From assembly GCA_001661245.1 (NCBI GenBank), contig KV454014.1, forward strand, positions 1,022,892 through 1,086,891: DNA of 64,000 nt, given 5' to 3'. Below, in pieces: positions 9,690 through 61,836 of this stretch. The stretch's first letter is position 1. Each line of letters starts with the position of its first letter. The DNA comes from Pachysolen tannophilus NRRL Y-2460. Lineage: Eukaryota. The notes under the pieces are model-generated. The model was not told the origin of the DNA. It ran no database searches and was given only the letters and a program-made list of their open reading frames with translations. A program made the translations under genes and the position numbers.

Positions 9690-12600
9690 ATGATAAGAAA
9701 ATCAAAATACAAGAAAGTTCTGAATCCAACGTTTAAGCCTAGCCGTTGTTCGCCACTTTCATCTTCTTCTAATACAGATGACTATTTTGAGGAAAAATTG
9801 TCATCCTTGCCTTTAGAGCAGATGCCCTCAGTAGCAGATAGTGGTAATGACGATAGTGAAAAAAAGATGATGAGGCTTGATAAGGCTAGTTCCCTATCGA
9901 AAGCAACAACAAGCCATTCGGCTTCAAATATGACTTCTGATATGAAGAGTAGTTATTCAGAAAGTTTTGGCCGAGGAAACCACGAAGCTACGAGTGGTGA
10001 TAGTAGCCACGGGAATAAAGGTATTCCTGAATTGAAAGATACTGATGACAACGACAATGACGATGACAATGACGATAACGATAAAAGTACAAGTACTCAA
10101 AAGCGGCTAAAGCTTTCGTACTTTGGATCATTTTCATCACATATCCCTCCAGAATTGTTGGATAGGTTACAAACTTTTTCTCTTTTCAAAAATGCACCTC
10201 CTGTATTTCTTAAATTGATTGCTAAAAGGTTGAAATTGATTCAGTTTCACCCGCAGGAATATATATTGAGAGAAGGAGAGCCTTCCAAATCAATGTACTG
10301 GATATTAAGAGGTACAGTAGGTGTTACCTCGGCAGATGGTGAAGCTACTTCTGCTGAGCTTGGGCCTGAAAGCTTTTTTGGTGAAATCGGAATAATGTTT
10401 AATAGACCAAGGACAGCAACTGTAGTTGCAAGAACAAGAGTATTATTAGGAGTATTAACAGCAGATGCTTTAAATGAAGTATTACCAGATTTCCCGTTGA
10501 TTGAAAGATTAATAAGGGACGAAGCACAAGAAAGATTAGCGATGCTAGAGAAGAAGAAAAGGCTGGGGTTGGCGTCTTTATCGAGTTTAAACAGGAATAA
10601 TAGTTCCGGTAAATTTTCATCTAATTTGTCCGCAGTAAATGCGTCCTTAGCAGCAAACACAGTCACTTCTTTTCCAGGTCCTGGATTACCTCCAATACAG
10701 CACGATAATTCTCGTGAGCAAAGACACGCAGATAATGCTACATCATCATCTTCTCCTTCTTCTTCTTCTTCTTCTTTGGGGTCACCGGTGACGCTAAATC
10801 TGCCGACTAATTTTAATACCAGTGTACAGACGGTTTGTTCAATGACAACCGATGTTGATGGATTGATTCCTGCAAGAGATTTTTTAAAAAGTTTACCGAT
10901 TTTTAAGTCATTACCATCTTCAATAATACATGAATTAGCATTAGACGTTGAATTAAAAAAATTTAATGCTTTTGAATATATCTTCAAGAAGGGCGACACA
11001 GGAAGGGATATTTTCTTTATCGTTGATGGAGAAGTTGAAGTTGTTGATCCAGCTTTAGATGTGCCATCTATTCTTGCTAGGTTGGGACCAGGGAAATATT
11101 TTGGAGAAATGGCTTTTCTTATATCTCTAAATGAAAACAATAGTTTGGAAACTCCTCATAATTCCCAGAGATCTGCAGATATTAGAACGGTGGCTGATAC
11201 TGTTCTATTAGTGGTCACTGGAGACAAGTTGGCAAATATTTGTGAAAAAAATCCTTTAATTTTTAACGAAATCAAAAAAACCGCAGGTGAAAGGAATCAA
11301 CATAATGATTTTTGTATTGCTGATAAAAATTCAACTGTTCTTAGCCATCCAAAATTATTGAAGAGAATTCCGGTTAAACTGTTGGTTGACGAAGAAGATA
11401 GTAGTGAAAAATCCTTTCCATTTAACAATATATGTTGGAATAAGATAAGCTCAGAGGAAGGGACTACTGAAATGGATCCCATAGAATATTCTCAACATAC
11501 TCCAATCAATCACCTGCAAAAAGTGGAGTCAGTGTCACCTGTGTCCGAATGCCACTATACACAGTCTATATTTTCAAGTTCAGGTTCTTCAACATCTAAT
11601 ACGTCTATTCAATCGAGTAATGGGAATGATAAGAAAAGAAAATCACACTCGCAGTTGCCATTAATTAAAGGTCAGGCACATAAAATTGAGAATTCGCATT
11701 TAGACTTGAATGTTCCTCCAGTAAACCCAACTCCTCCTCCAATAAACTCGATTTCAGTTGGTAGGTTTCAACGTCAACCTTTTCATTATATGCCAATCGC
11801 CAAGAGATTGAGGTTAACTAATAGCAATCATTCTAGGAGACGGTCATCTGTTTTGACCGCGGGTCCATTAACCGATAGGATTATGCTAATAGTTTTCTCT
11901 TATTTGGATTTGAAAACCTTGATGAAAGTAAGGAGAGTTTGTTCTAGATGGGCACATTTATTACTGGCTTCTCCCGATCTTGTTAGGAATTTAGACCTAA
12001 CTCTTTGGAATACTGCTATAACTGACAATGTGTTACTCCACATTACAGATTTTGTAGGTGATAGGCCACAACACATTGACATTTCTAATTGCTTCCATAT
12101 CACAGATGTAGGTTTTAGTTATATGGTCAATGAAATTGGTATTAGAGGGAATCTCAAGAGTTTAAAGATGAAATCAGCTTGGAAAATTAGTTCGATGGCA
12201 ATCATGGATTTATCGTTTCCCAGTGTAGGACAGCATTTAGAGGAAATCAATTTAACCAACTGTCGTAATGTTAACGATGATGTATTTGAAAGATTAATCG
12301 GGTGCCCTTGTGATACTGATCATCAAAAACAGTTGCATTATAAAGGGCCTAGTCGATTCCCATCTTTGAAACCCGATAATATTTACGATGATTATTTTAA
12401 TTCTCATAATATTGGATGTGCAAATTTGAAAAAAATGGATTTATCATATTGTAAACATATGACAGATAAATCTATGGCTATATTGGCAGGCAGAGCATCT
12501 GATAGAATTGAAGAATTAATTTTGACTAGATGCACCACTATAACAGATAATGGATTCCATTACTGGTCTTTGCACCAATTCCCCAAATTAAGAAAATTGG

Positions 12601-13052
12601 TTTTAAAAGATTGTACATTTTTATCAGATAATTCAATCATATCGATAGCAACCTCAGCTCCAAATCTAACTTATTTGGATATATCTTTTTGTTGTGCTTT
12701 AACTGATTCAGCCATTGATTTCCTTTGTTTCTGTTGTAAAGATTTAAGATATTTAAATATTAGTTTCTGTGGTGGAGCAGTTAGTGATATTTCATTAATT
12801 TCTATTTCTAGATTACAGTATTTAGAAATTTTGATAATTAGGAGTTGCCTTAGAGTGACTAGAGAAGGTATTGATAGATTATTAGCAGGTAGCGGAGAAT
12901 CATTGAAATTAATTGATTTGGCACAATGCAAGAATGCCCACCACTACCCATTTGGTGGTGGTCCTGCAGAGAAATGGTGTCCAAGGTCAGGAAGTAGATC
13001 CGCATTTATTAAAATTGAACCTTTTGATAGGGTAATTGAGATTATATTGTAA
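9690..13052 (+). CDS. Protein with two cyclic-nucleotide-binding domains, an F-box and leucine-rich repeats
   Basis: cNMP motifs FFGEIGIMFNRPRTATV and YFGEMAF...RSADIR; F-box LTDRIMLIVFSYLD...RRVCSRW; Cys-containing LRRs (LSYCKHMTD, LTRCTTITD, LKDCTFLSD). First ATG is 9690; the true start may be further downstream. Confidence 0.85.
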   Translation: MIRKSKYKKVLNPTFKPSRCSPLSSSSNTDDYFEEKLSSLPLEQMPSVADSGNDDSEKKMMRLDKASSLSKATTSHSASNMTSDMKSSYSESFGRGNHEATSGDSSHGNKGIPELKDTDDNDNDDDNDDNDKSTSTQKRLKLSYFGSFSSHIPPELLDRLQTFSLFKNAPPVFLKLIAKRLKLIQFHPQEYILREGEPSKSMYWILRGTVGVTSADGEATSAELGPESFFGEIGIMFNRPRTATVVARTRVLLGVLTADALNEVLPDFPLIERLIRDEAQERLAMLEKKKRLGLASLSSLNRNNSSGKFSSNLSAVNASLAANTVTSFPGPGLPPIQHDNSREQRHADNATSSSSPSSSSSSLGSPVTLNLPTNFNTSVQTVCSMTTDVDGLIPARDFLKSLPIFKSLPSSIIHELALDVELKKFNAFEYIFKKGDTGRDIFFIVDGEVEVVDPALDVPSILARLGPGKYFGEMAFLISLNENNSLETPHNSQRSADIRTVADTVLLVVTGDKLANICEKNPLIFNEIKKTAGERNQHNDFCIADKNSTVLSHPKLLKRIPVKLLVDEEDSSEKSFPFNNICWNKISSEEGTTEMDPIEYSQHTPINHLQKVESVSPVSECHYTQSIFSSSGSSTSNTSIQSSNGNDKKRKSHSQLPLIKGQAHKIENSHLDLNVPPVNPTPPPINSISVGRFQRQPFHYMPIAKRLRLTNSNHSRRRSSVLTAGPLTDRIMLIVFSYLDLKTLMKVRRVCSRWAHLLLASPDLVRNLDLTLWNTAITDNVLLHITDFVGDRPQHIDISNCFHITDVGFSYMVNEIGIRGNLKSLKMKSAWKISSMAIMDLSFPSVGQHLEEINLTNCRNVNDDVFERLIGCPCDTDHQKQLHYKGPSRFPSLKPDNIYDDYFNSHNIGCANLKKMDLSYCKHMTDKSMAILAGRASDRIEELILTRCTTITDNGFHYWSLHQFPKLRKLVLKDCTFLSDNSIISIATSAPNLTYLDISFCCALTDSAIDFLCFCCKDLRYLNISFCGGAVSDISLISISRLQYLEILIIRSCLRVTREGIDRLLAGSGESLKLIDLAQCKNAHHYPFGGGPAEKWCPRSGSRSAFIKIEPFDRVIEIIL

Positions 13053-23931: not shown

Positions 23932-24555
23932 ATGAAGTTTTCAATTGGTTTAATATTTTTAGGATTTGCAATAGTTTTTTGCTTTGCAGCTCCAATTCAA
24001 GAAATCTCTGCATCTAATCAAAGTTCAATCTTTCATTTTAGTCAGATATTATGTGATAATGAAAAAACTAAAGATGCTTATTGTTATAGGATGGTTAGTG
24101 AACCGGAAGAATCAATAATGCCTCTGAGAATTCCAATAACATCATGTCTTGATTCCAGTCAAGGAAGTGGTGGTACTGTTGGTGTTTCGTTTTCAGTAGA
24201 AATTGAAATTCTGGCTAATCCAACTTTTAGTATGGCAAGTCCAATATTAGATTTAATTAGTTTATCAACATCATTTTCAGTTTCTAAAACTTTTTCACTT
24301 ACTTCATCATATCAATGTACAGTGAAAAAAGGTAAAAAAGGTCAACTTTATGCTTCCCCAATAATAGTAGATGCAGTTTTCCAAAAAAAAGCTCTTTCTC
24401 AAGAAAATGATGATTCAGATTGGAGTCTGCCTTTTAAAGTTAGTGTTCCCGTTGTAAGTACACCATTTTTCAGTTGTGTTACAAGGTATACAGAAGAATC
24501 ATGTGAAGTTCCATCTAAAACAATTACAGTTCCTTTTGGTAAAATGCAAAGCTAA
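23932..24555 (+). CDS. Small secreted Ser/Thr-rich protein with six mature-region Cys; function unknown
   Basis: 207-aa ORF in very AT-rich flanks, A-rich start context, signal peptide MKFSIGLIFLGFAIVFCFA-AP, NQS sequon. Confidence 0.8.
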   Translation: MKFSIGLIFLGFAIVFCFAAPIQEISASNQSSIFHFSQILCDNEKTKDAYCYRMVSEPEESIMPLRIPITSCLDSSQGSGGTVGVSFSVEIEILANPTFSMASPILDLISLSTSFSVSKTFSLTSSYQCTVKKGKKGQLYASPIIVDAVFQKKALSQENDDSDWSLPFKVSVPVVSTPFFSCVTRYTEESCEVPSKTITVPFGKMQS

Positions 24556-25144: not shown

Positions 25145-26535
25145 ATGTCAGGTTTATTGCCATTATCATCATACAACTTAGAGTTAAAGCCGTTTGAGCC
25201 AACTCCAGCAATTGAAGATGACTTTCCAGTTACTATTAGAATAACTTTAGCTGCAATTGATCCAGAAGATAATGATGGTGAAGGGGTTCCATCTACTTTA
25301 AGAATTTTGAAAAGATCTGCATTCATTGACGATGATGATTTATCTGATTATGATTCTGAAGATGGTTCGTTAGACGAAGACGAAGATGAAGAAGAAGATG
25401 AAGAAAAAGAAGTTGAAGAAGAAGAAGAAAAACCAAAGAAGGGTAAGAAATCAAAGAAGGCACAAAAAGAAGAAGAAGAAGAAGAAGAAGAAGAAGAAGA
25501 AGAAGAAGAAGAAGAAGAAGAAGAAGAAGATGCTGAGGATGTTGATGGTGAAGTTAAGGATGATGATGAAGATGATGAAGAAGATGATGATTTGGATATT
25601 GAGGACTTGGACGATGGTGTTGAAGAATATGTTGTCTGTACTTTAGGACCAAAATTCCAATACCAACAAACTTTGGATTTAACAATTACTCCAGAAGAAG
25701 AAGTTTTCTTTGTTGTTACTGGTTCTTATGCAATTCATTTAACCGGTAACTATGTTGAACATCCTTACGATGGTGATTCTTCTGATGAAGAAGGTGATTA
25801 TGATGATTACTCTGATGAAGATGATTTGGATTCTGAAGATTATGATTTAACTCCAGATGAAGATGAAGTTTTATCTGGTGAGGAAAATTACGATTTGGAT
25901 GACTTGGAAGATGTTGATGATGTTGAAGGTAAAATCGAAGAAATTCTTGAACAAGAAGAAGGAGAAGAAGAAGAAGAAGGATCTGAAAATAAGAAACAAA
26001 ATAAGAAACGTTCTTTAAAAGAAACTGAACAACAACCAAGTAAGAAATCCAAGAAATCAAAAGATGAGAAAAGAAATGTTAAATTTTCTGAAAACTTGGA
26101 ACAAGGTCCAAGTGGTTCAACTTTAGTATCTGATAAAAAGGAAAAAAAAAGGATTCTACTACTTCACCAGTTTCTGATGAGAAAAAGGGCAAAAAATTCC
26201 CAACAAAACAATTAATTGGTGGTGTTACCATTGAAGACAGAACCGCAGGTAAAGGTCCAGTTTGTAAAAGCGGCCAAAGAGTAGGTGTCAGATACATTGG
26301 TAAATTGAAAAACGGTAAAGTTTTTGATAAAAATACCAATGGTAAACCTTTTACCTTTGGACTAGGTAAAGGTGAAGTCATCAAAGGTTGGGATGTTGGT
26401 GTCGCAGGCATGGCTGTTGGCGGTGAAAGAAGAATTGTAATTCCAGCTGCAATGGCTTATGGTAAAAAAGCTTTACCAGGAATTCCAGCAAACTCCGAAT
26501 TAACATTCGATGTCAAATTGGTCAGTATTAAATAA
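25145..26535 (+). CDS. FPR3: Nucleolar FKBP-type prolyl isomerase (Fpr3/Fpr4), split by a 1-nt frameshift near the A9 run at 26142-26150
   Basis: Nucleoplasmin-like N-domain, acidic tracts including a long (GAA)n; the FKBD ([39 protein letters not shown]) continues in the -1 frame. Confidence 0.9.
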
Positions 26536-27662: not shown

Positions 27663-30329
27663 ATGTCATTTCTTAAGAGCATCGTAACAAAACCGGCGGC
27701 CATGTTATCAAAGACTTCTGCATCATATCCCATACATACCCTTATAACTTTAACTTTATTGGCGTCGTATGCTTATTTGTCAATTGTTGATGAATATATT
27801 GTAAGAGGATCAAATTTGAATAATAACAATGGCGGTAGTGGTTATGTTAATCCTCAAGTTGTTGGTGAAGTTTCATTTTATCATCCTCATGGATCCAATG
27901 ATTATAATAATTGGATTGAAATTGAAGATTATTCACAATTTAGTAATGATGTTGATCACATTGCTGTTACTTATTTAACTTTCAAAGATGTTAAAAATCA
28001 TGAATTACCAGAAATTAAAGATAGTTTCCAAAGTATGGTAAAAAATGAAAGAATTTTAATTACAGATTTTGATGGAAAAGACAAAGTACTTCTGAATTTA
28101 AATAAACTTACAAGTAGTGATGGTACAAATTGGAAATTAAGACATCCAAATGGTTTAGAATCTTATTCAGATTATGCTAAATTAATTTTCCAAAGATTAG
28201 AAAATTGTATAAGAGGTGCTGAAACTTCAGATATTACTTTAATTGTTATAGCCTATATAGCTATGTGGTATACATTTTGTCAACTTTTCTTTGGAATGAG
28301 AGAAGTTGGTTCAAAATTTTGGTTGGCATTTGGATCATTATTATCATCTGGGTTTGGTTTTTTATTTGCTCTTTATTTTGTTACAATTATTTTAGAATTA
28401 CCAATCTCTTTAACAACACTTAGTGAAGGTTTACCATTTTTAGTTGCAACAATTGGTTTTAAACATAAAGTTGTTTATACTGAACCAATATTGAAATTTA
28501 TTTCGAAAAATAAAAGAAAAGATATTCCAAATATCATTGCTCGTGCTGTGGAAGAAGTTGCTGCATTGCATTTAATTAAATATCATTCAATTGTTCTTGG
28601 TGCATTTTTAGGTTGTTCAATTTATGCTCAACATTTAGAAGGTCTTAGAAATTTTTGTATATTAAGTGCTCTGATTTTAGTTTCAGATTTATTGATGACT
28701 TTTTCATTTTATTCTGCTGTCTTGGCTTTAAAAGCAGAAATTAATAAGGTTCATGAATCATTAGAATTAAAAGAATTTTTACAAGAAGATGGGATTAGCG
28801 AAAATGTTGCTGGTGTTGTTGCTGAAAAAAATAGTAAATCTACAATTTTCCAAAAAAATGCTGGAGTAGTAGGTTTTAAAATTGCAATAATTGCTGTATT
28901 TTTCGGTATTCATTTATTTGTATTGGGAACTTCTTGGATGTATGATTCTAATTCAGAATATAGAGTTTCATTTGCTGATACTAAACAATTTGTCAATGTC
29001 TTGTCAAAAACTACTGCACAACATATTAAAATTGGACAAAATGGTACAATTGCAACAATTATGCCTCCTCGTGTTTTCACCCCTACTGGATTTATAGCTA
29101 AAGCTGAAGATGTATTTTTATCCAGTTTACATACCATTGCTAAGGCTACTATTGATCCATTAATTAGTAAATTTTTATTATTGGTCACTGCAATCAGTGT
29201 TTCAATCAATGCTTACTTGTTAAATGCTACTAGGTCACATATCAAAAATGTTTCGGTTGTTGCAGAAGCTGTTTCTGTAGCTGAAAATATTAAAAAAACT
29301 GAACATAATAATAAAAGTACCGAGACCATTGTTTCTTCATTTAGCAAGCCACTGAATAGAAACTTTGTCAGTTCATCAGTTGAACATGTTGAAACTGATG
29401 ATACTATATCTTCAAGTGATGATGATATCAAGTCCGTAGATCTTATTCCAAACCAAGAGCCTAAACGTTCCGTTGAAGAACTTGTTGAATATATGAAAGA
29501 AGGAAAGTTGAAAACATTGTCTGATTCTGAAGTTGCCACTTTAGTAACTGTCGGGAAAGTTCCTCTTTATGCGTTGGAAAAGCAATTAGCTGATAACACT
29601 CGTGCTGTTCTGGTGAGAAGAAAAGCTATTGCTAATTTAGCGGATGCTCCTATTTTAGAGACTAATAAGCTACCTTATAAACATTATGATTACAATCGTG
29701 TCTTTGGTGCATGTTGCGAAAATGTTATTGGTTATATGCCATTGCCAGTTGGTGTTGCTGGACCATTAATTATTGATGGAAATCCTTTCCATATTCCGAT
29801 GGCAACTACTGAAGGATGTCTTGTTGCTTCTACTATGAGAGGTTGTAAAGCTATAAATGCAGGTGGCGGTGTTACTACTGTTTTGACTCTGGATGGTATG
29901 ACTAGAGGTCCTTGTGTTTCATTTCCTTCTTTGATCCGTGCAGGTGCAGCAAAGATGTGGTTGGATTCAGAAGAAGGTTCCACTCGTATAAAGAAGGCTT
30001 TCAATTCAACTTCCAGATTTGCAAGATTACAAAGCATTCAATGTTGTTTAGCAGGAACATTATTATTTATTCGTTTTAGAACTACTACTGGAGATGCCAT
30101 GGGTATGAACATGATATCAAAAGGTGTTGAATATTCATTGAAATATATGATTGAAGAGTGTGGATTCGAAGATATGGTTGTTATCTCAGTTTCAGGTAAT
30201 TATTGTAGCGATAAAAAAGCTGCTGCTATAAATTGGATTGAAGGTAGAGGTAAATCGGTTGTTGCTGAGGCAAGAGTTCCTGCAGATGTTGTTCGTAAAG
30301 TGTTGAAATCTGATGTTAAAAGAAAATAG
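27663..30329 (+). CDS. HMG1: HMG-CoA reductase, N-terminal 885 codons (membrane/sterol-sensing domain and most of the catalytic domain), truncated at an inversion breakpoint
   Basis: HPIH-like YPIH motif, SSD, GACCENVIG, ATTEGCLVAS, TGDAMGMNM, DKKAAAINWIEGRG; homology ends at VLKSDV, followed by KRK-stop. Confidence 0.95.
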   Translation: MSFLKSIVTKPAAMLSKTSASYPIHTLITLTLLASYAYLSIVDEYIVRGSNLNNNNGGSGYVNPQVVGEVSFYHPHGSNDYNNWIEIEDYSQFSNDVDHIAVTYLTFKDVKNHELPEIKDSFQSMVKNERILITDFDGKDKVLLNLNKLTSSDGTNWKLRHPNGLESYSDYAKLIFQRLENCIRGAETSDITLIVIAYIAMWYTFCQLFFGMREVGSKFWLAFGSLLSSGFGFLFALYFVTIILELPISLTTLSEGLPFLVATIGFKHKVVYTEPILKFISKNKRKDIPNIIARAVEEVAALHLIKYHSIVLGAFLGCSIYAQHLEGLRNFCILSALILVSDLLMTFSFYSAVLALKAEINKVHESLELKEFLQEDGISENVAGVVAEKNSKSTIFQKNAGVVGFKIAIIAVFFGIHLFVLGTSWMYDSNSEYRVSFADTKQFVNVLSKTTAQHIKIGQNGTIATIMPPRVFTPTGFIAKAEDVFLSSLHTIAKATIDPLISKFLLLVTAISVSINAYLLNATRSHIKNVSVVAEAVSVAENIKKTEHNNKSTETIVSSFSKPLNRNFVSSSVEHVETDDTISSSDDDIKSVDLIPNQEPKRSVEELVEYMKEGKLKTLSDSEVATLVTVGKVPLYALEKQLADNTRAVLVRRKAIANLADAPILETNKLPYKHYDYNRVFGACCENVIGYMPLPVGVAGPLIIDGNPFHIPMATTEGCLVASTMRGCKAINAGGGVTTVLTLDGMTRGPCVSFPSLIRAGAAKMWLDSEEGSTRIKKAFNSTSRFARLQSIQCCLAGTLLFIRFRTTTGDAMGMNMISKGVEYSLKYMIEECGFEDMVVISVSGNYCSDKKAAAINWIEGRGKSVVAEARVPADVVRKVLKSDVKRK

Positions 30330-30460
30330 CAAGAAAGAACAAAAAAAAAAAAAAGAAGAATTAATATGATATATAAAACATGTGCATCAATAATGGGGAT
30401 GGTGGCATAACATTATTCTTTTTTTTTTTTTTTTTTTTGTTGTTGTTGTTGTTGCTGTTA

Positions 30461-30967
30461 TTAGGATTTTATGCATGATCCAATAATCACTTTATCATTA
30501 TTAGTTTCTGGATTGTTGGTACTGGCCACTTTTCTATTATGTTGCATGTGACTTTGAACCAAATGTCCAGCAGCTAACGCAGATAATAAAGATAATTCTG
30601 CAGCTAATACTGCCGATGCCACTATCTTGGCCAATTGTCTAGCATTGTTTCCCGGTTGATCGACATTGGCTCCTTTCACACCTAAAAGTTCCAACATTGC
30701 ACTCTGAGGTTCCAAAATAGTACCACCACCTATAGTTCCAACTTCAATAGAAGGCATAGATACAGATATTATTAAATCTCCATTTTCTTTATCTTCATTC
30801 ATTAAAGTAATACAATTTGATGATTCAACATTCTGTGCAGGATCCTGACCTGTAGCTAAATAAATTGCAGTAACTAAATTTGCTGCATGTGCATTAAACC
30901 CACCAACAGCACCGGCCATTGCAGATCCAATTAAATTCTTATCAACGTTAACTTCAACCAATGATGT
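30461..30967 (-). CDS. HMG1: HMG-CoA reductase, C-terminal 168 aa, on the opposite strand
   Basis: [61 protein letters not shown]; no initiating ATG at its 5' end. Confidence 0.95.
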
Positions 30968-31534
30968 CACCGTGGAGTTTTTTTATTTCATTTTTTTCAT
31001 TATTTTATTTTGGTTGTTTTAGAAAAAAGTAATTGAAAACTGAATTCCTGTAATTTTATATACTATTTATTTAATTTAGAGAAATGTAAAGTCGGCTGTT
31101 ACTATTTGCCGTCATTGCACGGCTGAAAGTTAGATCTATTAAATCGTCACATATTGTGGAGTTGTAAGTAAGTGTATCTCGCTCGGCAAAGGAAGTACTG
31201 GTCTCCAACGCTATTCTGTTTTCACTCGGTACCTGACTCCAATAATTATAAACACTAGATCATCTCAAAAGAGGACCGATAACGATACCGAACCCTCAAC
31301 GGAGTATCTTTGATTTCAAAAAATTTTTGTTAGTTTTCGGTTAAGTGTTGAAAAAAAAAAAAATACCAAAAACAAAAAAAAAAGAAAAAATTTTTTGTAT
31401 AGTAGTAAAGTAAGACAGAAATTTTTCAAGATAAATTATCAGGTCTATAAAGAGACCACCCATCGTGATATTTACTGACGATAGTCATATTGTTTTTCTG
31501 TTTCTTTTGAGGAGAGGTATAGGTTTTGCTGGTT

Positions 31535-35595: not shown

Positions 35596-37434
35596 TCATA
35601 AATCATCACAGATTAAATTATTTCTAATAATATTAAGATCTTCTTCTTTGAAGTCCATGTGCTTTAACATGTAATTTGTGATACCACCAAATTTTTTGTT
35701 AAACATTTCGATTGTGTTTAACATTGCTTCACATCTCGAGGAAACAACATTTTGGAACCCTTCTTCTTCAATACTCCAATTTTTCCTACCTTTGACGATA
35801 GATTTTTCATAAGCTTGATAAAATTCTTTTTCTTTGTCAATATTCTTCAAAGTTTGTAAAAAATGTTTTCTCATATTTTCAATATTTGGTTTTAACCCTT
35901 CTGTAGTTAATTCGTACTCTTTAGAAATAGTAATCTTATCCAATCCACATAATAAATAAATTAACATTGTCATTATTCCTGTTCTATCTTTTCCTGCTGT
36001 ACAATGATAAAGAAATGGTTCACCTGGGTGATCTCTAATAAATAAAAATATTTGTTTAAAAGCATTCAGACCTTGAGTTAATATATCTTGATAAATTTCT
36101 TCATAAGTTGCCCATGAAATTACTAAATTTTTATAAATCATCATTAAATCTTCAGGAGAAGCAAGTGAATTAACAACTGGTACAAAATATCTTTTAACAC
36201 CTTCAATGTTTAAATAATCATCTTTTTCACATTCTTCTATTGATCTTAAATCAAATATTGTATTTATATTTAATTCTTTAAACAGATCTATACCTTTTGG
36301 AGTAATCTTACTAAGTAATGCACTTCTATAACCAATATGTGGTTTTATAAATTTATTTGTTTTAACTCTCCAACCTCCAATATCTCTAAAATTTGCAACT
36401 CCTTCAATTTTTTTCCATCTTGAAACAGAAGAAATATTAATTGTTCTATTATAAAATCTTGAAAGTTCAGATTCATGAGAAAAAAAATTAACTATAATTT
36501 CAGATACTTTATAATTATAATTAACTTTCCCAATTGCATTTAATGGCATTGGATCTTCAAGATTATTTATATCACCAAAAAAATTATGATCAGCATTTGG
36601 AATAAATTCTAATTGATGTTTATTACCTAATAAGTTTGCAAATTTAGTTGTATCTTCCAATGGAATAACATTTTCATTTAATCCATAAATACTTAAGACA
36701 TCATTATGTAAAAATTTAATTTTATTTAAATCTTTATGTGAAGTTAAATGTAAAGTTTCATTTTTTGGAACTAAATATTCTTTATATTCACCATTTTTAT
36801 AACCATAAATATAATAACCTTTTTTATCTTCCCAATCTAAATGTTTTCTTTTAACACTTGGTAAATGTAAAGAATAATCAAATCTTCCAGAACAATTAAT
36901 TAAATTTGGTACAAAAATATAATTTTTTTCATTTTTTTCTAAAATTTCTTGTTGTTTTAAAGCCCATTTAAACATTGTTAAAGTACCTCTTGAATGAGCA
37001 ACAATACCACTAATACTAAAATACATATTATTAAAACCACCATTAATCAGTTTATCTATAATTAATTCTAAATCTTCAATATCTTGATCAATTGTTCTAC
37101 CAATTTCTAAATTTTTACAATCTTGAGAATCTCCACAACCTCTAAAATCAAATCGTATACTGAAAATACCTAATTTTGAAGCTAATTCTTGAGCTAATAT
37201 TGAATTATAACAATAATTTTTATGACCACCATTACCATGTAATAATATAACTAATTTATGAGTTGAAGGTGAATAACCTTTAGAATAAAAATCTTCATCA
37301 AATAAAGCATGTGGGGATGTAAATATTGCAGATAAACCTTTTTCATTTTCTTGATTAGAAGAATTTGGAAATTTAACAAAAATTTTTTGTTCATTAAAAT
37401 TTAATGGTTTAACACGAGGACCTTTTGAACTCAT
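35596..37434 (-). CDS. Alpha/beta-hydrolase (YDL057W-like) fused to a Cys-based tyrosine/lipid phosphatase domain
   Basis: LLHGNGGHKN, FDFRGCGDS, AHSRG nucleophile elbow, ADHNF; then NFRDIGG, DLRS..E, HCTAGKDRTG; first ATG at 37434. Confidence 0.85.
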   Translation of the reverse strand: MSSKGPRVKPLNFNEQKIFVKFPNSSNQENEKGLSAIFTSPHALFDEDFYSKGYSPSTHKLVILLHGNGGHKNYCYNSILAQELASKLGIFSIRFDFRGCGDSQDCKNLEIGRTIDQDIEDLELIIDKLINGGFNNMYFSISGIVAHSRGTLTMFKWALKQQEILEKNEKNYIFVPNLINCSGRFDYSLHLPSVKRKHLDWEDKKGYYIYGYKNGEYKEYLVPKNETLHLTSHKDLNKIKFLHNDVLSIYGLNENVIPLEDTTKFANLLGNKHQLEFIPNADHNFFGDINNLEDPMPLNAIGKVNYNYKVSEIIVNFFSHESELSRFYNRTINISSVSRWKKIEGVANFRDIGGWRVKTNKFIKPHIGYRSALLSKITPKGIDLFKELNINTIFDLRSIEECEKDDYLNIEGVKRYFVPVVNSLASPEDLMMIYKNLVISWATYEEIYQDILTQGLNAFKQIFLFIRDHPGEPFLYHCTAGKDRTGIMTMLIYLLCGLDKITISKEYELTTEGLKPNIENMRKHFLQTLKNIDKEKEFYQAYEKSIVKGRKNWSIEEEGFQNVVSSRCEAMLNTIEMFNKKFGGITNYMLKHMDFKEEDLNIIRNNLICDDL

Positions 37435-41928: not shown

Positions 41929-44054
41929 TTAAATTCCACTCTTCCTCTTTTTAGTAGAATGTGGAGAAATATCATCGATAATGCTAGTATCCAAACCATT
42001 GATATTATCAACATTATCATCGTAAGCCCTTTTCACAGCGCTATCGTTGCTATTATCATTTAAACCTGGTTGAAAACTTTCCAAATCATTCTTATAAGGT
42101 GTTCCACCTTCATGTGGAGTTCCAGACACCAAGAAATCATCTACTGTAAAATTTTCATCTAACTGCGAATCAGCCAAATCTGTATTGCTAGTATCACTTC
42201 CATCACCACTATTCTTGGAAGCTGCTAATTTATTAATCCATTCATGAATATTTTGAATTGATTCTCCTTGTTTATTAATGTTTGCTTCCAATGCTTCCAT
42301 AAAAGATTTTTTCTCTTTAGTTAACTGTCTTGGTGTGTTTGGTGATAAGTTACTATTTGGATTTTCTGGTGAAATTCCAGAGTTATAGGTATTCAACGTG
42401 TTCAACCCTAAGTCATCAATATAACCAGGATGATTGATGTTATTAATGTTAAAATTTGACGAACCCAGTAAAGCATTTGAGTTCTGTGGTATCTCTAAAT
42501 CAGGAAATAAAGATCTTGGTGACGGAACGATACTATAGTTATTATTATTACCATTGGTATTGCCATTGGTATTACCATTGGTATTACCATTGGTATTGGT
42601 CCCAATATCAGAGTCGATTATTTCTTGAATAAAAGGGTGATTAGTCGAACCATTACTCCTATTATTATGATTGCCGTTACCCAACATGCTATTTTCCAAA
42701 GCTTGTTGATTCTCATAATAAATATTCCTATCTTTTGGAGACCTTGAAATTTCTTGAATAGGAGAATCATTTGAAGCAGTGTCAGTATTTTTGTTATTAT
42801 AACGAGCTGGAATATTTTGATTAATTTGATCATTTTTAATTCCTCCATTTGAAGTATTCGAAGACGTTCTTCTATGAGCATTTTCTGTAATCATTAATCT
42901 TGGTCTAGAATAAGGATTTTTATCTCCATTATTATCATTTGAATTATATGCCGTTGGATTCATATTATTATTAGTGTTATTCATGGTTGTTAAATCGGTA
43001 CTATTCATACTATCAACAACTTCTAAAATTTTATTATTATTTCCATAAACAGAGGCTAAAAATCTTAAAATTTTTTCCAATGTTTGACTTTGTTTAGTAT
43101 GTCTTTCTCTGGTTAAATAATTTTCTTTCCATAATAATTCGTTATCTTTTCTTACTCTTCTCAAATCTTCTGCAATCAGAATTTGATTCATTTTTATATT
43201 TTCCAATTCATTCAACAAGATACCAAAATCAATTTCTGAATCTTCTTCATCTCCTTTATTAGATTTATTCCTAATAATGTTATCTAATAAATCTTCTCTA
43301 TCTTTTATAAAATCCGGATTTTCAAACTGCCAAAAATCTTCATTTTGAGTGATACCACTTTGAATTGAACCATGAGTAACATCTTGAACTTTATGCCAAC
43401 CGTACATATTCAATTGTCTTACAAAACTAGCAAAATTGTTATGTTTGAAATATTTTGGTAAAATATGTTTCATAAATTCTTCTCTATTGGAAACCATAAA
43501 TGATTGTCCATCAGGCACCCATTTTATATATTTTTCATTTGCCTTATCGTTGACCATATTCCATAATTTAGTTACAAAAGCAGGACGAGATTTTGGTCCT
43601 GTTGTATTTTTTTTGGTTTTTGTTTTTTCAAATGCATTGGTTTAGGGTTATTAATCACAGAAGAAAAGGGAAATTGATTATTTGAGCTATTAATATCAGT
43701 ATCACCATTTTTAATCAAAGCATTTGAAAAATTAATATTTTCTGGCAATACACTATTAGAAAGTTGGGTTAAAGAATTTGAATCTGTCTGCAGCGGCAGC
43801 GGCTGGAAATAAGCCAACTCGTTATTATTATTATTATTATTATTAGTAGTAGTAGTAGTAGTATTACTGTTGTTATTATTATGATTAACTTGTAGATTAT
43901 CAACAGGACTTTCGTTATACAACGCAGGCGTTATAATATTATGGTCTTCATTCAATCCAATGTATGCATTATTACCATCATAATATAATTTATCGTCAAC
44001 ATTCAAATCATTATTGTTGACAGAATTTCCGGTATTACTTGTATTGGTACTCAT
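41929..44054 (-). CDS. HSF1: Heat shock transcription factor, split by a 1-nt frameshift within about 43572-43640
   Basis: DBD frame reads GPKSRPAFVTKLWNMV...LPKYFKHNNFASFVRQLNMYGWHKV plus the trimerisation heptad; the upstream Asn-rich ORF (ATG 44054) overlaps it in another frame. Confidence 0.9.
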
Positions 44055-47407: not shown

Positions 47408-47822
47408 NNNNNNNNNNNNNNNNNNNNNNNNNNNNNNNNNNNNNNNNNNNNNNNNNNNNNNNNNNNNNNNNNNNNNNNNNNNNNNNNNNNNNNNNNNNNN
47501 NNNNNNNNNNNNNNNNNNNNNNNNNNNNNNNNNNNNNNNNNNNNNNNNNNNNNNNNNNNNNNNNNNNNNNNNNNNNNNNNNNNNNNNNNNNNNNNNNNNN
47601 NNNNNNNNNNNNNNNNNNNNNNNNNNNNNNNNNNNNNNNNNNNNNNNNNNNNNNNNNNNNNNNNNNNNNNNNNNNNNNNNNNNNNNNNNNNNNNNNNNNN
47701 NNNNNNNNNNNNNNNNNNNNNNNNNNNNNNNNNNNNNNNNNNNNNNNNNNNNNNNNNNNNNNNNNNNNNNNNNNNNNNNNNNNNNNNNNNNNNNNNNNNN
47801 NNNNNNNNNNNNNNNNNNTNTN
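47408..47822. other. Assembly gap (N run) bounded by poly-T
   Basis: Ns in the sequence; the ORFs called across it are spurious. Confidence 1.
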
Positions 47823-50286: not shown

Positions 50287-51558
50287 CTATGCTGGTGGTA
50301 AAAACATACCGTATAAACCTGTTTGAACTGTAATCCAAATAACAGAATAATATATAAAACTTTTTGAAAAATTGAAATCATTAATAGTGGGTTTACCTTT
50401 TTTCTCATTGATGGAAAGTAATTTATTTGTATTTTCTGTTATGAACAAATCAGCCATATACCAATAACTAATTGGTAAGAAAGTAGATATTCTGTTAATT
50501 ATTTGAACATGCCAAAAAAATAAATTTAAGAATAAATATATTGTAGAAATTATTAAAATTACTTTTATCTTTATTAAGCATGGGTATTTGTATGTGAAAT
50601 AAAACAATGAATTTATAATGACAATAATTGTTGGTAAACAAAATAAAAAATTTGGTATATTATTTAATGTCCAATATTTTAAAAATCCAGTATTCCAATA
50701 ATTTGATTGTGCAAACAATAATAAAGATGGAATTTTATTCAGACACCATAAAGTTCTTTCTGGACAAAATTGAAAATATGGTATCACATTTAACAGTGAA
50801 AAAGATATGAAAACTTGGAAACCTGTTAATAATGACCATCTTGCGTTATTCAAATTTTTGTAATAAAAAAAATTGTTTATTAAATCAAATAAATATAATA
50901 TTCCTAATAACAATGTATTACTTCTTGTTAAAACTGCAATTGAAGCAAAAGTTCCTGATAAAAAATAAGGAAAAATTTTTTTAATTTCATATGATTTATC
51001 AAAATTATATTTTAATGAAATTTCTCTTAAATATAAGCTTGTAAAACTTAATAAAGAACAAAATGATTCACTATATGTTGTTGTTAAAAAAATTCCTGCT
51101 GGTGAAATTATGAAAAATAATGAAGAAATTAAACTTAAATTTTTAACTCTTTTTTGTAAAGGATTTAATGATTTAAAACATGTAAAAGTCAATTCATATA
51201 ATATAATAGATGATGAGAAATGACATAAATTTGTAATCATTAATGCAATTATGAAATTTTTATAAAAAGATTTAATTTTTAAAAAATTTATTAATCTCCA
51301 CCATAATGGACCAAATACATATTCATGTTCAAAGATTATATCTTTTTCTTTATCAAAATTAAATAATTTTGTAAAATAAATGTTATCCCATTTTATTAAA
51401 TTATTTAATAAGATATTGTTCCAATTATTATCTTGTAAGTAATTATTTGCTGATGTATCAAATTGTACAAATACAATTTTTATTATTACAAATTGAAAAA
51501 TTTTAATGATTAAAAATAACTTTAAAATAATCTTGAACGATTTAAAATCAATATTCAT
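50287..51558 (-). CDS. GPI18: GPI mannosyltransferase II (PIG-V)
   Basis: FDTS, KWDNIYF, SPAGIFL...YSES, YWNTGFLKYWT.NNIPNF, C-terminal FLPPA. Confidence 0.92.
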   Translation of the reverse strand: MNIDFKSFKIILKLFLIIKIFQFVIIKIVFVQFDTSANNYLQDNNWNNILLNNLIKWDNIYFTKLFNFDKEKDIIFEHEYVFGPLWWRLINFLKIKSFYKNFIIALMITNLCHFSSSIILYELTFTCFKSLNPLQKRVKNLSLISSLFFIISPAGIFLTTTYSESFCSLLSFTSLYLREISLKYNFDKSYEIKKIFPYFLSGTFASIAVLTRSNTLLLGILYLFDLINNFFYYKNLNNARWSLLTGFQVFISFSLLNVIPYFQFCPERTLWCLNKIPSLLLFAQSNYWNTGFLKYWTLNNIPNFLFCLPTIIVIINSLFYFTYKYPCLIKIKVILIISTIYLFLNLFFWHVQIINRISTFLPISYWYMADLFITENTNKLLSINEKKGKPTINDFNFSKSFIYYSVIWITVQTGLYGMFLPPA

Positions 51559-51709
51559 ATTTTATAAACCACAATTGAATAAAATCATTTATTTAATTAA
51601 TAACGTAGTAGCTAACTAGATATATATATATATATATATAAATTATTTATTTATTTATTTTTACTTTTTTTTTTTTTTAGTTAACTTTTTTTTTTTTTGA
51701 TTTTTCACT

Positions 51710-52531
51710 TTAAATAATTGTTTCAATTTCTTTGGCGTAATATAATGCATTTTTAATAATCAATCTATTATCAATTTCTTCATCATTTTTTTCTTCATTT
51801 TCTATTTTTTCTTTATCGAAATAAATGATATTATCTTTTAAGTACCAATTTTTATGATCATTAATAATATTTAATACTTGATCATTATCGGTATTATTAT
51901 TATTTAAAAATAATAAATTTTTTAAATTTTTTAATGGTAAAAATTTATAAGTTTTTTCAAAATTTTTACAAATTTCAGATCTAATTGAATTTAATAAAAT
52001 TTGTTCAAAAATTGTAAATTCTTCACATGCAATTTTATCATCTTTATTTTCAAAAAATTGGAAAATTTTAAAATAATCACCATCAATAATCCATTTTTCT
52101 AAATTTATTGGGAATTTTAAATATAAATCTTTTTCTAAATCATCTATTGTCTTTGATTCATTTTGAAAATATTCCAATTCTATATGAAATTTATCCAATT
52201 CACCATTTGATAATAATAATAATAAATATAATGAAATTAATTTATTTTTATTTTTAGAAATTGTTAAATTATTTAATTTATAAAAAAATTTTAATTGTAA
52301 AATATAATTTTTAAAATTTTCAAATTTTAAAAGATTAATTGAAGCTAATGCTCCAATTTCTAAAATTGATCTAGTTATAATTAAATCATTTGTATTTTTA
52401 TTATTTATTGGAACTAATAAATTATTATTGATCAATTGAATTTTAATTTTTGAAAGTAACAATTGACAATTCTCATAATCTTTTGAATCAAAAGATGTAG
52501 TTAATTGTCTTGTTAAATTTTCTAATGACAT
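51710..52531 (-). CDS. RPN12: 26S proteasome lid subunit Rpn12
   Basis: RSILEIGALAS, FHIELE, FPINLEKWIIDGDY, C-terminal YAKEIETII. Confidence 0.9.
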   Translation of the reverse strand: MSLENLTRQLTTSFDSKDYENCQLLLSKIKIQLINNNLLVPINNKNTNDLIITRSILEIGALASINLLKFENFKNYILQLKFFYKLNNLTISKNKNKLISLYLLLLLSNGELDKFHIELEYFQNESKTIDDLEKDLYLKFPINLEKWIIDGDYFKIFQFFENKDDKIACEEFTIFEQILLNSIRSEICKNFEKTYKFLPLKNLKNLLFLNNNNTDNDQVLNIINDHKNWYLKDNIIYFDKEKIENEEKNDEEIDNRLIIKNALYYAKEIETII

Positions 52532-58181: not shown

Positions 58182-59402
58182 TTAAATATTGAACAAATTG
58201 AGTGAATCTTTTGGAGTATTAACATAATCTCTCAATTTTTCAACTTCTTCTTTGGAATAAACAGTTCTATTTTCTGTCTGTGAGGAATGGAAGATTACTG
58301 GTTTTACATATCTGTATAAATATTCTGATAATTCATCTGCAACCATATCCAAATCATTAAAAGTCTTACAATTTGGATCTATAACTTGATTAATATGAAC
58401 TCTTGTCAATTGATCAGTATTAAATCTTTCTTGTGAAGATAAAACTTGTCTTACTTGAGCAACAAATTTAACTAAAAATTCAGGAATTGGTAAATAATAA
58501 CCAGCAGAAGCAGGGTAGTAACCTCTTTGATCAATATGAATAATATGTTTAATCATTTCTCTTAATTCCAGCTTTGAATAACGTTCATTACCATATAATT
58601 CAAAAGTTTGACCCATAGTAGAATCATCATAACCAATTTTTTCCAACAGTTGTGCCACTTGAGCTCCATGAACTGGGTAAACTTCTTTTTTAAAAATAAT
58701 ATTACCACCCAAGACTTTAATTCTTAATAATTCATTTAAAAATCTTGAATTTCTACCATACATTGGAGCTGGTCTAACAATTGTTGCATCTGGGTAAAAA
58801 TCTTTAACAACTTGTTCACTTAAACCTTTTGTTGCATAAAAAATTGATTCTGAATTTGGATTTGCATTATAAGAAGAAACATGAATAAATCTTGGAACAC
58901 CTGCTTCCCTTGATGCTTTAGCTATTCTTCTTGCAGCTTCAATATTTACATCTGCCATTGAGAAATTTTTGGTCCAATGTTCAGAACCAATCAAATTAAA
59001 TACAATATCAGAATGCAGAACACTTTTAGCAATTGAATCTAAATTTCTAATATCAAATTCCATAAAATTAACAACTCCTAAATCTCCATTAACTTTTAAT
59101 TGTCTTTTAAGCATAGCATTTCTAAAAGGAACAACAGTAATAGTCCCATGTTTAGCTAACTTGGCAACCAACTGACGACCTAAAAACCCAGACCCACCAA
59201 AAACTGTTGCCGTATACCCAGTTCTTGAAGATCTGTTCCCTTGACCTACCGCTGTTACAATCTTACCTGCACCTGTAATATTGACATCTGATTTTAATGG
59301 GAAAAGTGATATATACCTCCTACTATTTCTGAAAAAACAAAATTTGGAAATATTAACCTCACTAACCTCACTAACAACTCTAAAAGCTACTTTCAACACC
59401 AT
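58182..59402 (-). CDS. Mitochondrial complex I 39/40-kDa accessory subunit (NDUFA9/NUEM)
   Basis: RSSRTGYTATVFGGSGFLGR, LKVNGDLGVV, HSDIVFNLIG, ATIVRPAPMYG. Confidence 0.92.
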   Translation of the reverse strand: MVLKVAFRVVSEVSEVNISKFCFFRNSRRYISLFPLKSDVNITGAGKIVTAVGQGNRSSRTGYTATVFGGSGFLGRQLVAKLAKHGTITVVPFRNAMLKRQLKVNGDLGVVNFMEFDIRNLDSIAKSVLHSDIVFNLIGSEHWTKNFSMADVNIEAARRIAKASREAGVPRFIHVSSYNANPNSESIFYATKGLSEQVVKDFYPDATIVRPAPMYGRNSRFLNELLRIKVLGGNIIFKKEVYPVHGAQVAQLLEKIGYDDSTMGQTFELYGNERYSKLELREMIKHIIHIDQRGYYPASAGYYLPIPEFLVKFVAQVRQVLSSQERFNTDQLTRVHINQVIDPNCKTFNDLDMVADELSEYLYRYVKPVIFHSSQTENRTVYSKEEVEKLRDYVNTPKDSLNLFNI

Positions 59403-59703: not shown

Positions 59704-61836
59704 TCAGTGTTTTCCCTTTGTACGTTTATGTCTTAATTCTTTTTGTTGTTTTTCGATTTCTGGATCGAACAAGATGAATTCATCTAAACCTTTACCTGCA
59801 GGAACCATTGGTAATACTGGGACTTTTTTCTCTACCCAAGCATCCAATAAGACTGGGCCATCTGTGTTCAACCATTCTGCTATACCTGGGATCATATCTT
59901 CTTGTTTTACAATTCTAATTGCTTTCATACCCATTGCTTCTGCCAATTTTACAAAATCTGGATTTGTTTGATGAGTATGTGAATAACGATCTTCATAAAA
60001 AAGAGATTGCCATTGGGTGACCATACCTTGTTCTTCATTATTTAAGACACAAACTTTAATTGGTGCATTTGCCTGTACAGCAGAGCTTAATTCAGTAAGG
60101 GTCATGTTTAATGAAGCATCACCATCAATATCAATAACTAAAGCATTTGGTTTTGCAACTTGAGCACCAATTGCAGCAGGAAGACCATAACCCATTGTTC
60201 CCAAACCACCAGAGGTAATAAAAGTTCTTGGTTTTGTCCAATTGAAATATTGAGCAGTCCACATTTGATGTTGTCCAACACCAGTGGTAACAATAACTTC
60301 TTCTTTATTTTTCATCAGATGCAGTTGTTTTGAAATTTCAGAGATTAAAGTTTGTGGTTTTATAGCAGAACCTGGTGTTTCTAATTGATATGTATATGGA
60401 TATTTCAATTTCCATTCTTTAATTTGATCAAACCATTCTTTTCTTTCTAATTTAGTAACTGGTTCAATAATTGGTATGAATTTTTCTAAATTATGAGTAA
60501 CATCACCTTCTATAGCTTCTGTCAGTTCAACAACTTTATTTATATTTTTTGGTTGAATTTCAAAATGTATAATTCCACCTCTTTTCTCCAATGCAGCTAA
60601 TTTTGCTTGTGGAGCAAATTTATTTATATTACCAGTAACACGATCATCAAATCTTGCACCTAATGCAATAATACAATCTGAATTTTGCATTGCCATATTT
60701 GCTACAGCTGATCCATGCATACCTAATAAATCTAAAGATTTTTCATCATTTTGATTAAATGCACCTAATGCTTGTAAAGTTGTTGTAACTGGAATTTGAG
60801 CTCTATCAGCCAATTCTTTTAATTTTTTAGGTCCTAATTCTGAATTTAAAATACCTGCACCAACATATAAAACTGGTTTTTTCAGTTTATTTAATAACAG
60901 TGCAGCTCTTTGAATTGAACGCATTGTAAATTCATTTACTGCAGCTTCTGTAATTTCTTTTAAAGTAGATGATGGTAAAGTTGTATTCACAGGAATAGCT
61001 TCTCTTAAAATTGCAGCAGTAACATCTTTTGGTAAATCAACCAATACAGGACCTGGACGTCCAGAAGTCAGGATTTCAAAAGCTTCATTTATACGTCTTG
61101 GTAATTCTGCAACCGATTTTACCATCACATTCCATTTTGTACAAGATCTCGATATACCAACAACATCTGCTTCTTGGAAAGCATCGGTACCAATTGCCGA
61201 AGTTGGGACTTGCCCCGTAAATACAACCAATGGAACACCATCTGCCAATGCATCTGCCATTGGTGTGACAACGTTTGTAGCACCTGGACCCGAGGTGACC
61301 AAGACAACACCAGGTTTCCCCGAAGCTCTAGCATAACCTTCAGCCATATGACCTGCTCCTTGTTCATGACGAGGCAAGACAAACTTAAAATGAGGCGAAT
61401 TATAAATTGCATCAAATACAGGTAAAATGGCTCCACCAGGATATCCAAATACAGTATCAACTTTATGCCTAAGCATCATTTCATGGAAAACTTGACCACC
61501 ACTCAAACCAATAAACGAATCATCCATAAGCAGCTGCTGCGAGTGTGTACTTTTTGATTTCGATTTCCCAGTTCTTTGAATCGGCAGCAGCTGTTGGGGC
61601 TGGGGCAGCTGGTGCTGCTGTTGGTGCTGCAGCTGTTGATTCAACAGTTGTTTCTGATCTTTCTCTTGCTCTTGATTAAAAGAAGGCAGCGGTGTTGGCC
61701 TCACAGCAGCTGCCCCATGAACTGCCTGAGCTGCCAGAGCAGCATTATAACAAGCCACTGAAGATGTTAATGATCTTTTCGCAACAGCGGTGAAAATTTT
61801 ACAATGTATATTTGGTTTTATAGTATTATAAATCAT
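59704..61836 (-). CDS. ILV2: Acetolactate synthase catalytic subunit, mitochondrial
   Basis: VFGYPGGAILPVFD, RHEQGAGHMAEGYA, TGVGQHQMW, SGGLGTMG, GDAS...NNEEQGMV. Confidence 0.98.
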   Translation of the reverse strand: MIYNTIKPNIHCKIFTAVAKRSLTSSVACYNAALAAQAVHGAAAVRPTPLPSFNQEQEKDQKQLLNQQLQHQQQHQLPQPQQLLPIQRTGKSKSKSTHSQQLLMDDSFIGLSGGQVFHEMMLRHKVDTVFGYPGGAILPVFDAIYNSPHFKFVLPRHEQGAGHMAEGYARASGKPGVVLVTSGPGATNVVTPMADALADGVPLVVFTGQVPTSAIGTDAFQEADVVGISRSCTKWNVMVKSVAELPRRINEAFEILTSGRPGPVLVDLPKDVTAAILREAIPVNTTLPSSTLKEITEAAVNEFTMRSIQRAALLLNKLKKPVLYVGAGILNSELGPKKLKELADRAQIPVTTTLQALGAFNQNDEKSLDLLGMHGSAVANMAMQNSDCIIALGARFDDRVTGNINKFAPQAKLAALEKRGGIIHFEIQPKNINKVVELTEAIEGDVTHNLEKFIPIIEPVTKLERKEWFDQIKEWKLKYPYTYQLETPGSAIKPQTLISEISKQLHLMKNKEEVIVTTGVGQHQMWTAQYFNWTKPRTFITSGGLGTMGYGLPAAIGAQVAKPNALVIDIDGDASLNMTLTELSSAVQANAPIKVCVLNNEEQGMVTQWQSLFYEDRYSHTHQTNPDFVKLAEAMGMKAIRIVKQEDMIPGIAEWLNTDGPVLLDAWVEKKVPVLPMVPAGKGLDEFILFDPEIEKQQKELRHKRTKGKH

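Follow-up and report, generated by a model that had tools for sequence, protein, structure and literature searches.

CTG is read as alanine in a segment of yeast nuclear DNA that carries ILV2

Which amino acid is specified by the CTG codons of the ILV2 gene described here? The gene resides in a 64,000-nucleotide stretch of DNA (termed the window) that was analysed as a whole. This DNA is AT-rich, with 29% GC, and is yeast nuclear DNA. An initial annotation of the window proposed that CTG is read as alanine rather than leucine, and cited five triplets in two genes. All five, three in Ilv2 and two in Hmg1, are in-frame CTG codons situated in the contexts that had been quoted. The gene names Esf2, Cog8, Fpr3/4, NDUFA9, H3 and H4 used below are what we take the corresponding genes to be. 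Three genes are referred to throughout:

59704..61836, minus strand: ILV2, acetolactate synthase catalytic subunit, 710 aa (from homologs, Pfam and PDB), with 14 in-frame CTG codons
27663-30317, plus strand: 5′ part of HMG1, with in-frame CTG at codons 337, 650 and 743
58182-59402, minus strand: NDUFA9-like gene (Pfam epimerase/NAD-binding fold)

To avoid assuming a meaning for the codon, Ilv2 was aligned with its best 119 homologs after residues encoded by CTG had been masked as X. Five of the codons fall in the following columns:

61069-61071, minus strand: Ilv2 codon 256, CTG; Ala in 119 of 119 homologs
60883-60885, minus strand: Ilv2 codon 318, CTG; Ala in 117 of 119, the sole Leu being that of protein P0017
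60523-60525, minus strand: Ilv2 codon 438, CTG; Ala in 118 of 119
61687-61689, minus strand: Ilv2 codon 50, CTG, in a conserved N-terminal motif; Ala 100, Ser 17, Leu 1 and gap 1 of 119
60322-60324, minus strand: Ilv2 codon 505, CTG; Ala 60 and Ser 49 of 119

The first three are the Ilv2 sites that the initial annotation had called conserved alanines, and the alignment bears it out. Codon 50 is a fourth CTG in an Ala column, absent from that annotation. In the two PDB chains shown (6dek and 6u9d), codons 256 and 318 both align with Ala, whereas codon 438 aligns with Ala in one chain and Thr in the other. Codon 313 occupies a variable column and the other eight Ilv2 CTG codons lie in gappy columns; by position, eight of the 14 are found in codons 1-104 and six in the remainder.

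If the standard code applied, the CTG codons in Ala columns would be genuine Ala-to-Leu substitutions. Other leucine codons do not behave in this manner. The conserved Leu columns of the Ilv2 alignment hold TTA 22 times, TTG 11 times and CTT three times, and the Ala columns hold none of these. When three genes are combined, TTA, TTG, CTT and CTA occur 91 times in conserved Leu columns and never in conserved Ala columns, whereas the corresponding counts for CTG are 0 and 4. Sequencing error as the source of CTG at Ala sites was rejected by reasoning, since no GCN codon becomes CTG with fewer than two altered bases and the pattern is seen repeatedly.

The CTG codons of the other genes lie in columns of more varied character, of which four are as follows:

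29610-29612, plus strand: Hmg1 codon 650, CTG; variable column (Val 59, Ala 29, Leu 14 of 119)
29889-29891, plus strand: Hmg1 codon 743, CTG; variable column (Gln 48, Ala 28, Lys 22 of 119)
28671-28673, plus strand: Hmg1 codon 337, CTG; Leu-led membrane column (Leu 59, Ile 30, Val 12 of 119)
58647-58649, minus strand: NDUFA9-like codon 252, CTG; Ala 100, Gly 24, Leu 1 of 150

Hmg1 codons 650 and 743 had also been presented as conserved alanines, a description that the alignment contradicts, with Ala in only 29/119 and 28/119 homologs. These sites are weak evidence for an Ala reading because their columns are without conserved Ala; at 743, Ala is found in both PDB chains shown (1dq8 and 2q1l). 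Judged from its column, Hmg1 337 is the clearest single site against reading CTG as Ala. The other two NDUFA9-like CTG sites are in variable columns, and the four sites of a DUF3445/HODM-like gene are polar or mixed (Lys in 104/119 at codon 388; Ala 46 and Lys 36 at codon 406). Mbp1 codon 98 aligns with Lys or Arg in four PDB chains shown and is uninformative, and the Esf2-like and Cog8-like proteins had no matches in PDB. Among the strongly conserved columns that hold CTG, five of six are Ala columns (Ilv2 50, 256, 318 and 438; NDUFA9-like 252), one is a Lys column, and none is a Leu or Ser column.

The meaning of each codon was also inferred from weighted column profiles of four families (Ilv2, Hmg1, DUF3445 and NDUFA9-like). 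Alignment-based inference of this kind had been named in the initial annotation as a way to check its proposal, and on these four genes it returns alanine for CTG. The remaining 56 of the 57 codons were assigned their standard residue, so that CTG is the sole departure; in this 56/56 agreement, CTA and TGC are represented by one site each, and CGA, CGC, CGG and CTC are absent from the usable columns. At the 18 of 26 CTG sites that were usable, the scores were +17.3 bits for Ala, -10.7 for Gln, -14.0 for Ser, -14.9 for Lys and -26.2 for Leu, which places Ala 28 bits ahead of the next residue, Gln; such bits overstate certainty because the homologs are related to one another. The pooled call leans mainly on Ilv2. 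Without this gene (11 sites), the values are 1.2 for Ala, 0.4 for Gln, -1.1 for Lys, -7.4 for Ser and -12.7 for Leu. Columns with at least 70% Ala make up 5/18 of the CTG sites compared with 88/168 of the GCN sites.

The Ala-minus-Leu score at CTG is 43.5 bits. Real Leu sites average -75 bits on this score, and 0/100,000 draws of 18 such sites reached the CTG value. The warning that Leu at CTG in the ORF track is wrong holds. Although a standard code could draw on the Leu-led column at Hmg1 337 and on two of 17 Pfam domains that score higher with Leu, the column counts in three genes and the profile test refute it, and we regard genuine leucine at these sites as vanishingly improbable.

The Pfam comparison covered 21 window proteins translated with tables 26, 1 and 12, with one family kept per region and families lacking CTG in the matched stretch dropped. 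Ala outscored Leu in 15 of the 17 CTG-holding domains, the two exceptions being Sterol-sensing and Abhydrolase_1. Between Ala and Ser, the score was higher for Ala in seven domains and for Ser in nine, with one tie and a net of about +4 bits for Ala. Leu is thus rejected window-wide by Pfam, and the choice of Ala over Ser rests on Ilv2 and NDUFA9-like 252.

This choice bears on a second alternative, in which CUG is serine (table 12, as in Serinales, or Ascoideales) and Ser merely occupies small-residue Ala columns. Ser equals or beats Ala in those 10 of 17 Pfam domains, and the column of Ilv2 505, with Ala 60 and Ser 49, also speaks for it. However, Ser is present at Ilv2 codons 256, 318 and 438 in only 0, 1 and 1 of 119 homologs. 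The Ala-minus-Ser score at CTG is 31.3 bits, a value reached by 0/100,000 draws of real Ser sites, and in three genes none of the conserved-Ser columns (16, 27 and 5, or 48 in all; ten outside the truncated Hmg1 described below) holds a CTG. Single-gene trees were built from 28, 21 and 20 hand-picked rows out of the 120 listed homologs per search. For Hmg1 and Ilv2, the window sequence falls outside the well-supported CUG-Ser group and outside the likewise well-supported Wickerhamomyces/Cyberlindnera group, with no supported sister. A table-12 Ilv2 is also absent from the public protein collection. For these four genes the profile test refutes Ser, a reading that we consider extremely unlikely.

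A third alternative is mixed decoding, wherein CUG is mainly Ala with a real share of Leu inserted by a retained tRNA-Leu(CAG) or by wobble of tRNA-Leu(UAG), in the manner of the Ser/Leu decoding of Ascoidea asiatica. In its favour, the scores of CTG sites are intermediate between those of true Ala sites and those of non-Ala sites (P = 0.001 versus GCN sites on the Ala-minus-Leu score), and Leu is tolerated at Hmg1 337 and 650. The weaker Ala signal can, however, be attributed to the tendency of CUG to lie at poorly conserved, unconstrained sites, as reported in PMC5951914. In the same source, mass spectrometry of Pachysolen assigns Ala to 243 of 256 CUG sites, Leu to three and Ser to none (Suppl. 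Table 1), and the three Leu calls resemble the noise for other species in the table. A separate study found Ala at 97.2% of 907 fully supported positions and reported that CUG is as unambiguous as AUG (PMC4937558). A mixed reading would be costly, moreover, for a CTG in a column that is Ala in 119/119 homologs (Ilv2 256). Mixed decoding is therefore very unlikely in our judgement.

We conclude with near certainty that the window comes from the nuclear genome of a yeast with the CUG-Ala code (Alaninales) and that essentially all of its genes read CUG as Ala; the most likely source is Pachysolen tannophilus or a species very close to it. The nuclear code of Pachysolen tannophilus is reportedly the subject of Riley et al. 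2016. As the initial annotation recognized, the code is not new; it was published in 2016 (Muhlhausen et al., PMC4937558) and has its own NCBI table. The proposal that CTG means Ala is supported by the Ilv2 columns, the profile test, public table-26 records and codon usage, together with the published work (PMC4937558; PMC5951914). Pachysolen carries 16,824 CUG codons in 5,288 genes, and 80% of genes are affected (PMC4937558). The Ala clade comprises Pachysolen, Peterozyma and Nakazawaea, with Ala at 243/256, 472/497 and 134/137 CUG sites, respectively (PMC5951914). According to PMC11182611, the order Alaninales, family Pachysolenaceae, has CUG-Ala as a diagnostic character, and OG0016373 is a protein family specific to this order.

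Exact look-up in NCBI, UniRef and nr recovered the table-26 translations of Ilv2, Ndufa9, DUF3445 and Hmg1 (4/4), which all map to a single 1.45-Mb contig, and recovered neither the table-1 versions of these four genes nor the table-12 Ilv2. These records are annotation, not independent proof, and show that the code has already been applied to these genes. Two Ilv2 peptides sought in six supplements of PMC5951914 gave 0 matches, and no RNA runs are listed among the five sequencing-run holders of the window DNA (two studies).

Synonymous codon usage was compared over ten codon families with that of three species, by using genome-wide counts from supplementary file 5 of PMC5951914. The window gives G = 98 against Pachysolen tannophilus, compared with 910 against Nakazawaea wickerhamii and 1737 against Peterozyma xylosa. 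CTG makes up 11.1% of the Ala codons in the window, 12.5% in Pachysolen and 19.6% in N. wickerhamii. There are 89 CTG codons across 29 ORF pieces (3.1 each). The window and Pachysolen table 26 are thus alike in CUG = Ala with other codons standard, in about three CUG per gene, in about 80% of genes affected and in codon usage, and no differences were found. The reassignment is common to the wider clade, whereas Peterozyma xylosa and Nakazawaea wickerhamii match the window far less well in codon usage. The match in codon usage and CUG frequency to Pachysolen tannophilus supports this species without being proof.

The nearest named homologs, among the best matches listed, come from Kuraishia, Ogataea and Komagataella (58-74% identity), and no named Alaninales occur among the homologs. 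In the trees, the window pairs with proteins that have Leu at Ala columns (support 84/80 and 33/68). Such Leu residues occupy seven of 43 conserved-Ala columns in the Logan protein P0017 (Ilv2, including column 318), two of 10 in P0245 and two in P0243; P0017 and P0245 each pair weakly with the window in their own tree. From this pattern, the three proteins probably belong to CUG-Ala yeasts, their public entries having been wrongly translated under the standard code. A metagenome scan for DNA of the P0017 source returned 77 loci with best segment identities of 42-70%, and no close match.

The published work suggests how the reassignment could have arisen. The ancestral tRNA-Leu(CAG) would have been lost, and a copy of tRNA-Ala whose anticodon is CAG (G3:U70 and A73, lacking a long variable arm) would have captured CUG. 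The anticodon is read by neither AlaRS nor SerRS (PMC5951914); because alanyl-tRNA synthetase ignores it, the enzyme charges the CAG-anticodon tRNA with Ala. A tRNA-Ala of this type, with G3:U70, A73 and a short variable loop, has been described for Pachysolen (PMC4937558), and a tRNA-cutting killer toxin has been proposed as the driver of reassignment (PMC5951914). A tRNA scan of the window found 0 tRNA genes. In the CUG-Ser1 (Serinales, table 12) and CUG-Ser2 (Ascoideales) yeasts, CUG likewise passed from Leu to a capturing tRNA, the anticodon of which is not read by its synthetase. They differ in that the amino acid is Ser, the capturing molecule is a tRNA-Ser and the origins are independent, and Ser is rejected in the window genes.

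After capture, CTG would be a fifth Ala codon, isolated by mutation from the other four, that accumulates where constraint is weak and occasionally holds an invariant Ala. The CAG-rich N terminus of Ilv2 may exemplify a poorly constrained site of this kind, CTG being one base off CAG. Codons ~55-104 (61525-61680, minus strand) form a CAG/CAA-rich tract with 11 CAG and with interspersed CTG, CAC, CCG and CCC, most of which, including CTG, are one base away from CAG. Under a CUG-Ala code, this N-terminal polyglutamine would erode to Ala and not to Leu.

The initial annotation had further stated that H3 and other highly expressed genes appear to avoid CTG. The absence itself is confirmed, as all 15 Ala codons of H3 and all seven of H4 are GCN. 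At the 11.1% CTG share, however, it is non-significant (P ~0.17 for H3 and ~0.075 for both, from counts), and it was dropped as independent evidence that CTG is Ala. A published de novo peptide table lists CTG at 3.6% of detected Ala sites versus 12.5% of genomic Ala codons (PMC5951914). The low figure agrees with under-use of CTG in abundant proteins; the one-mismatch rule of the method also disfavours CTG peptides.

CTG is unreachable from any GCN codon by a single substitution, and therefore the CTG codons at Ilv2 256, 318 and 438 must have arisen by double substitution or through an intermediate codon for Val (GTG) or Pro (CCG), much as serine codons switch from one of their two boxes to the other. 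At variable columns, CTG allows a single substitution to lead to Ala from a codon for Leu, Met, Gln or Arg. Together, these four account for 23% of non-Ala residues at CTG sites versus 14% at GCN sites (13 versus 80 columns, P = 0.013 in one of three uncorrected tests). We tentatively suggest that the reassigned codon has a mutational consequence of two kinds, namely arrival by double substitution or through Val or Pro at invariant Ala columns, and new one-step routes at variable columns. The CTG at Ilv2 column 318 is seemingly present also in the CUG-Ala relative represented by P0017, where the protein has Leu, and some CTG sites may date from early in the clade. A literature search turned up no paper that mentions double substitution or codon switching together with CUG and Pachysolen, which is weak evidence of absence. 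Extended genome-wide, the comparison would show how strongly protein evolution is reshaped by a reassigned codon.

The code has practical consequences for sequences of this type. Standard-code translations are wrong at ~0.6% of residues, with CTG in 22 of the 29 ORF pieces, and genes transferred without recoding from this yeast to a host with the standard code, or the reverse, would be mistranslated at CTG sites. CUG-Ala is one of very few nuclear sense-codon reassignments, has been confirmed by mass spectrometry in three genera and defines an order. The window itself contributes no new lineage or mechanism.

Several other features of the window were observed. HMG1 is split by a clean inversion of ~650 bp, at roughly 30318-30968. 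The reading frame is interrupted behind codon 885, which corresponds to Kuraishia residue 867, and the other 168 codons are intact on the opposite strand (30967-30461, minus strand), where they match Kuraishia residues 869-1035 at 76%. No residue is missing, and therefore the block of ~650 bases has simply been flipped. An identical 6-mer is present at 30311-30316 and 30962-30967. The inverted C-terminal part presumably carries the catalytic His motif, and the public Hmg1 protein is a truncated form of 888 aa. The inversion is probably an assembly error.

A Fpr3/Fpr4-like gene (25145-26535, plus strand) has an FKBP-like C-terminal domain that is frame-shifted past an A-rich run, with the break near 26135-26150, most likely because of a homopolymer error in the assembly. 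The Hsf1 ORF begins within the DNA-binding domain (Pfam position 8), and an Asn-rich ORF lies immediately upstream on the same strand (43572-44054 and 41929-43557, minus strand); the two are perhaps a single gene split by an intron or a frameshift. An assembly gap of 413 N (47408-47822) directly follows the divergent H4/H3 pair. Two genes at 50287-52531 (minus strand) have very low GC contents of 20% and 16%, compared with 29% window-wide. By Pfam, a 612-aa protein (35596-37434, minus strand) has an alpha/beta-hydrolase domain fused to a Y_phosphatase3 tyrosine-phosphatase domain, and a 1120-aa protein (9690-13052, plus strand) combines two cNMP-binding domains with an F-box and leucine-rich repeats. 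Finally, a 207-aa ORF (23932-24555, plus strand) without a Pfam match at E 1e-6 has a signal-peptide-like start and several cysteines, and possibly encodes a secreted protein.
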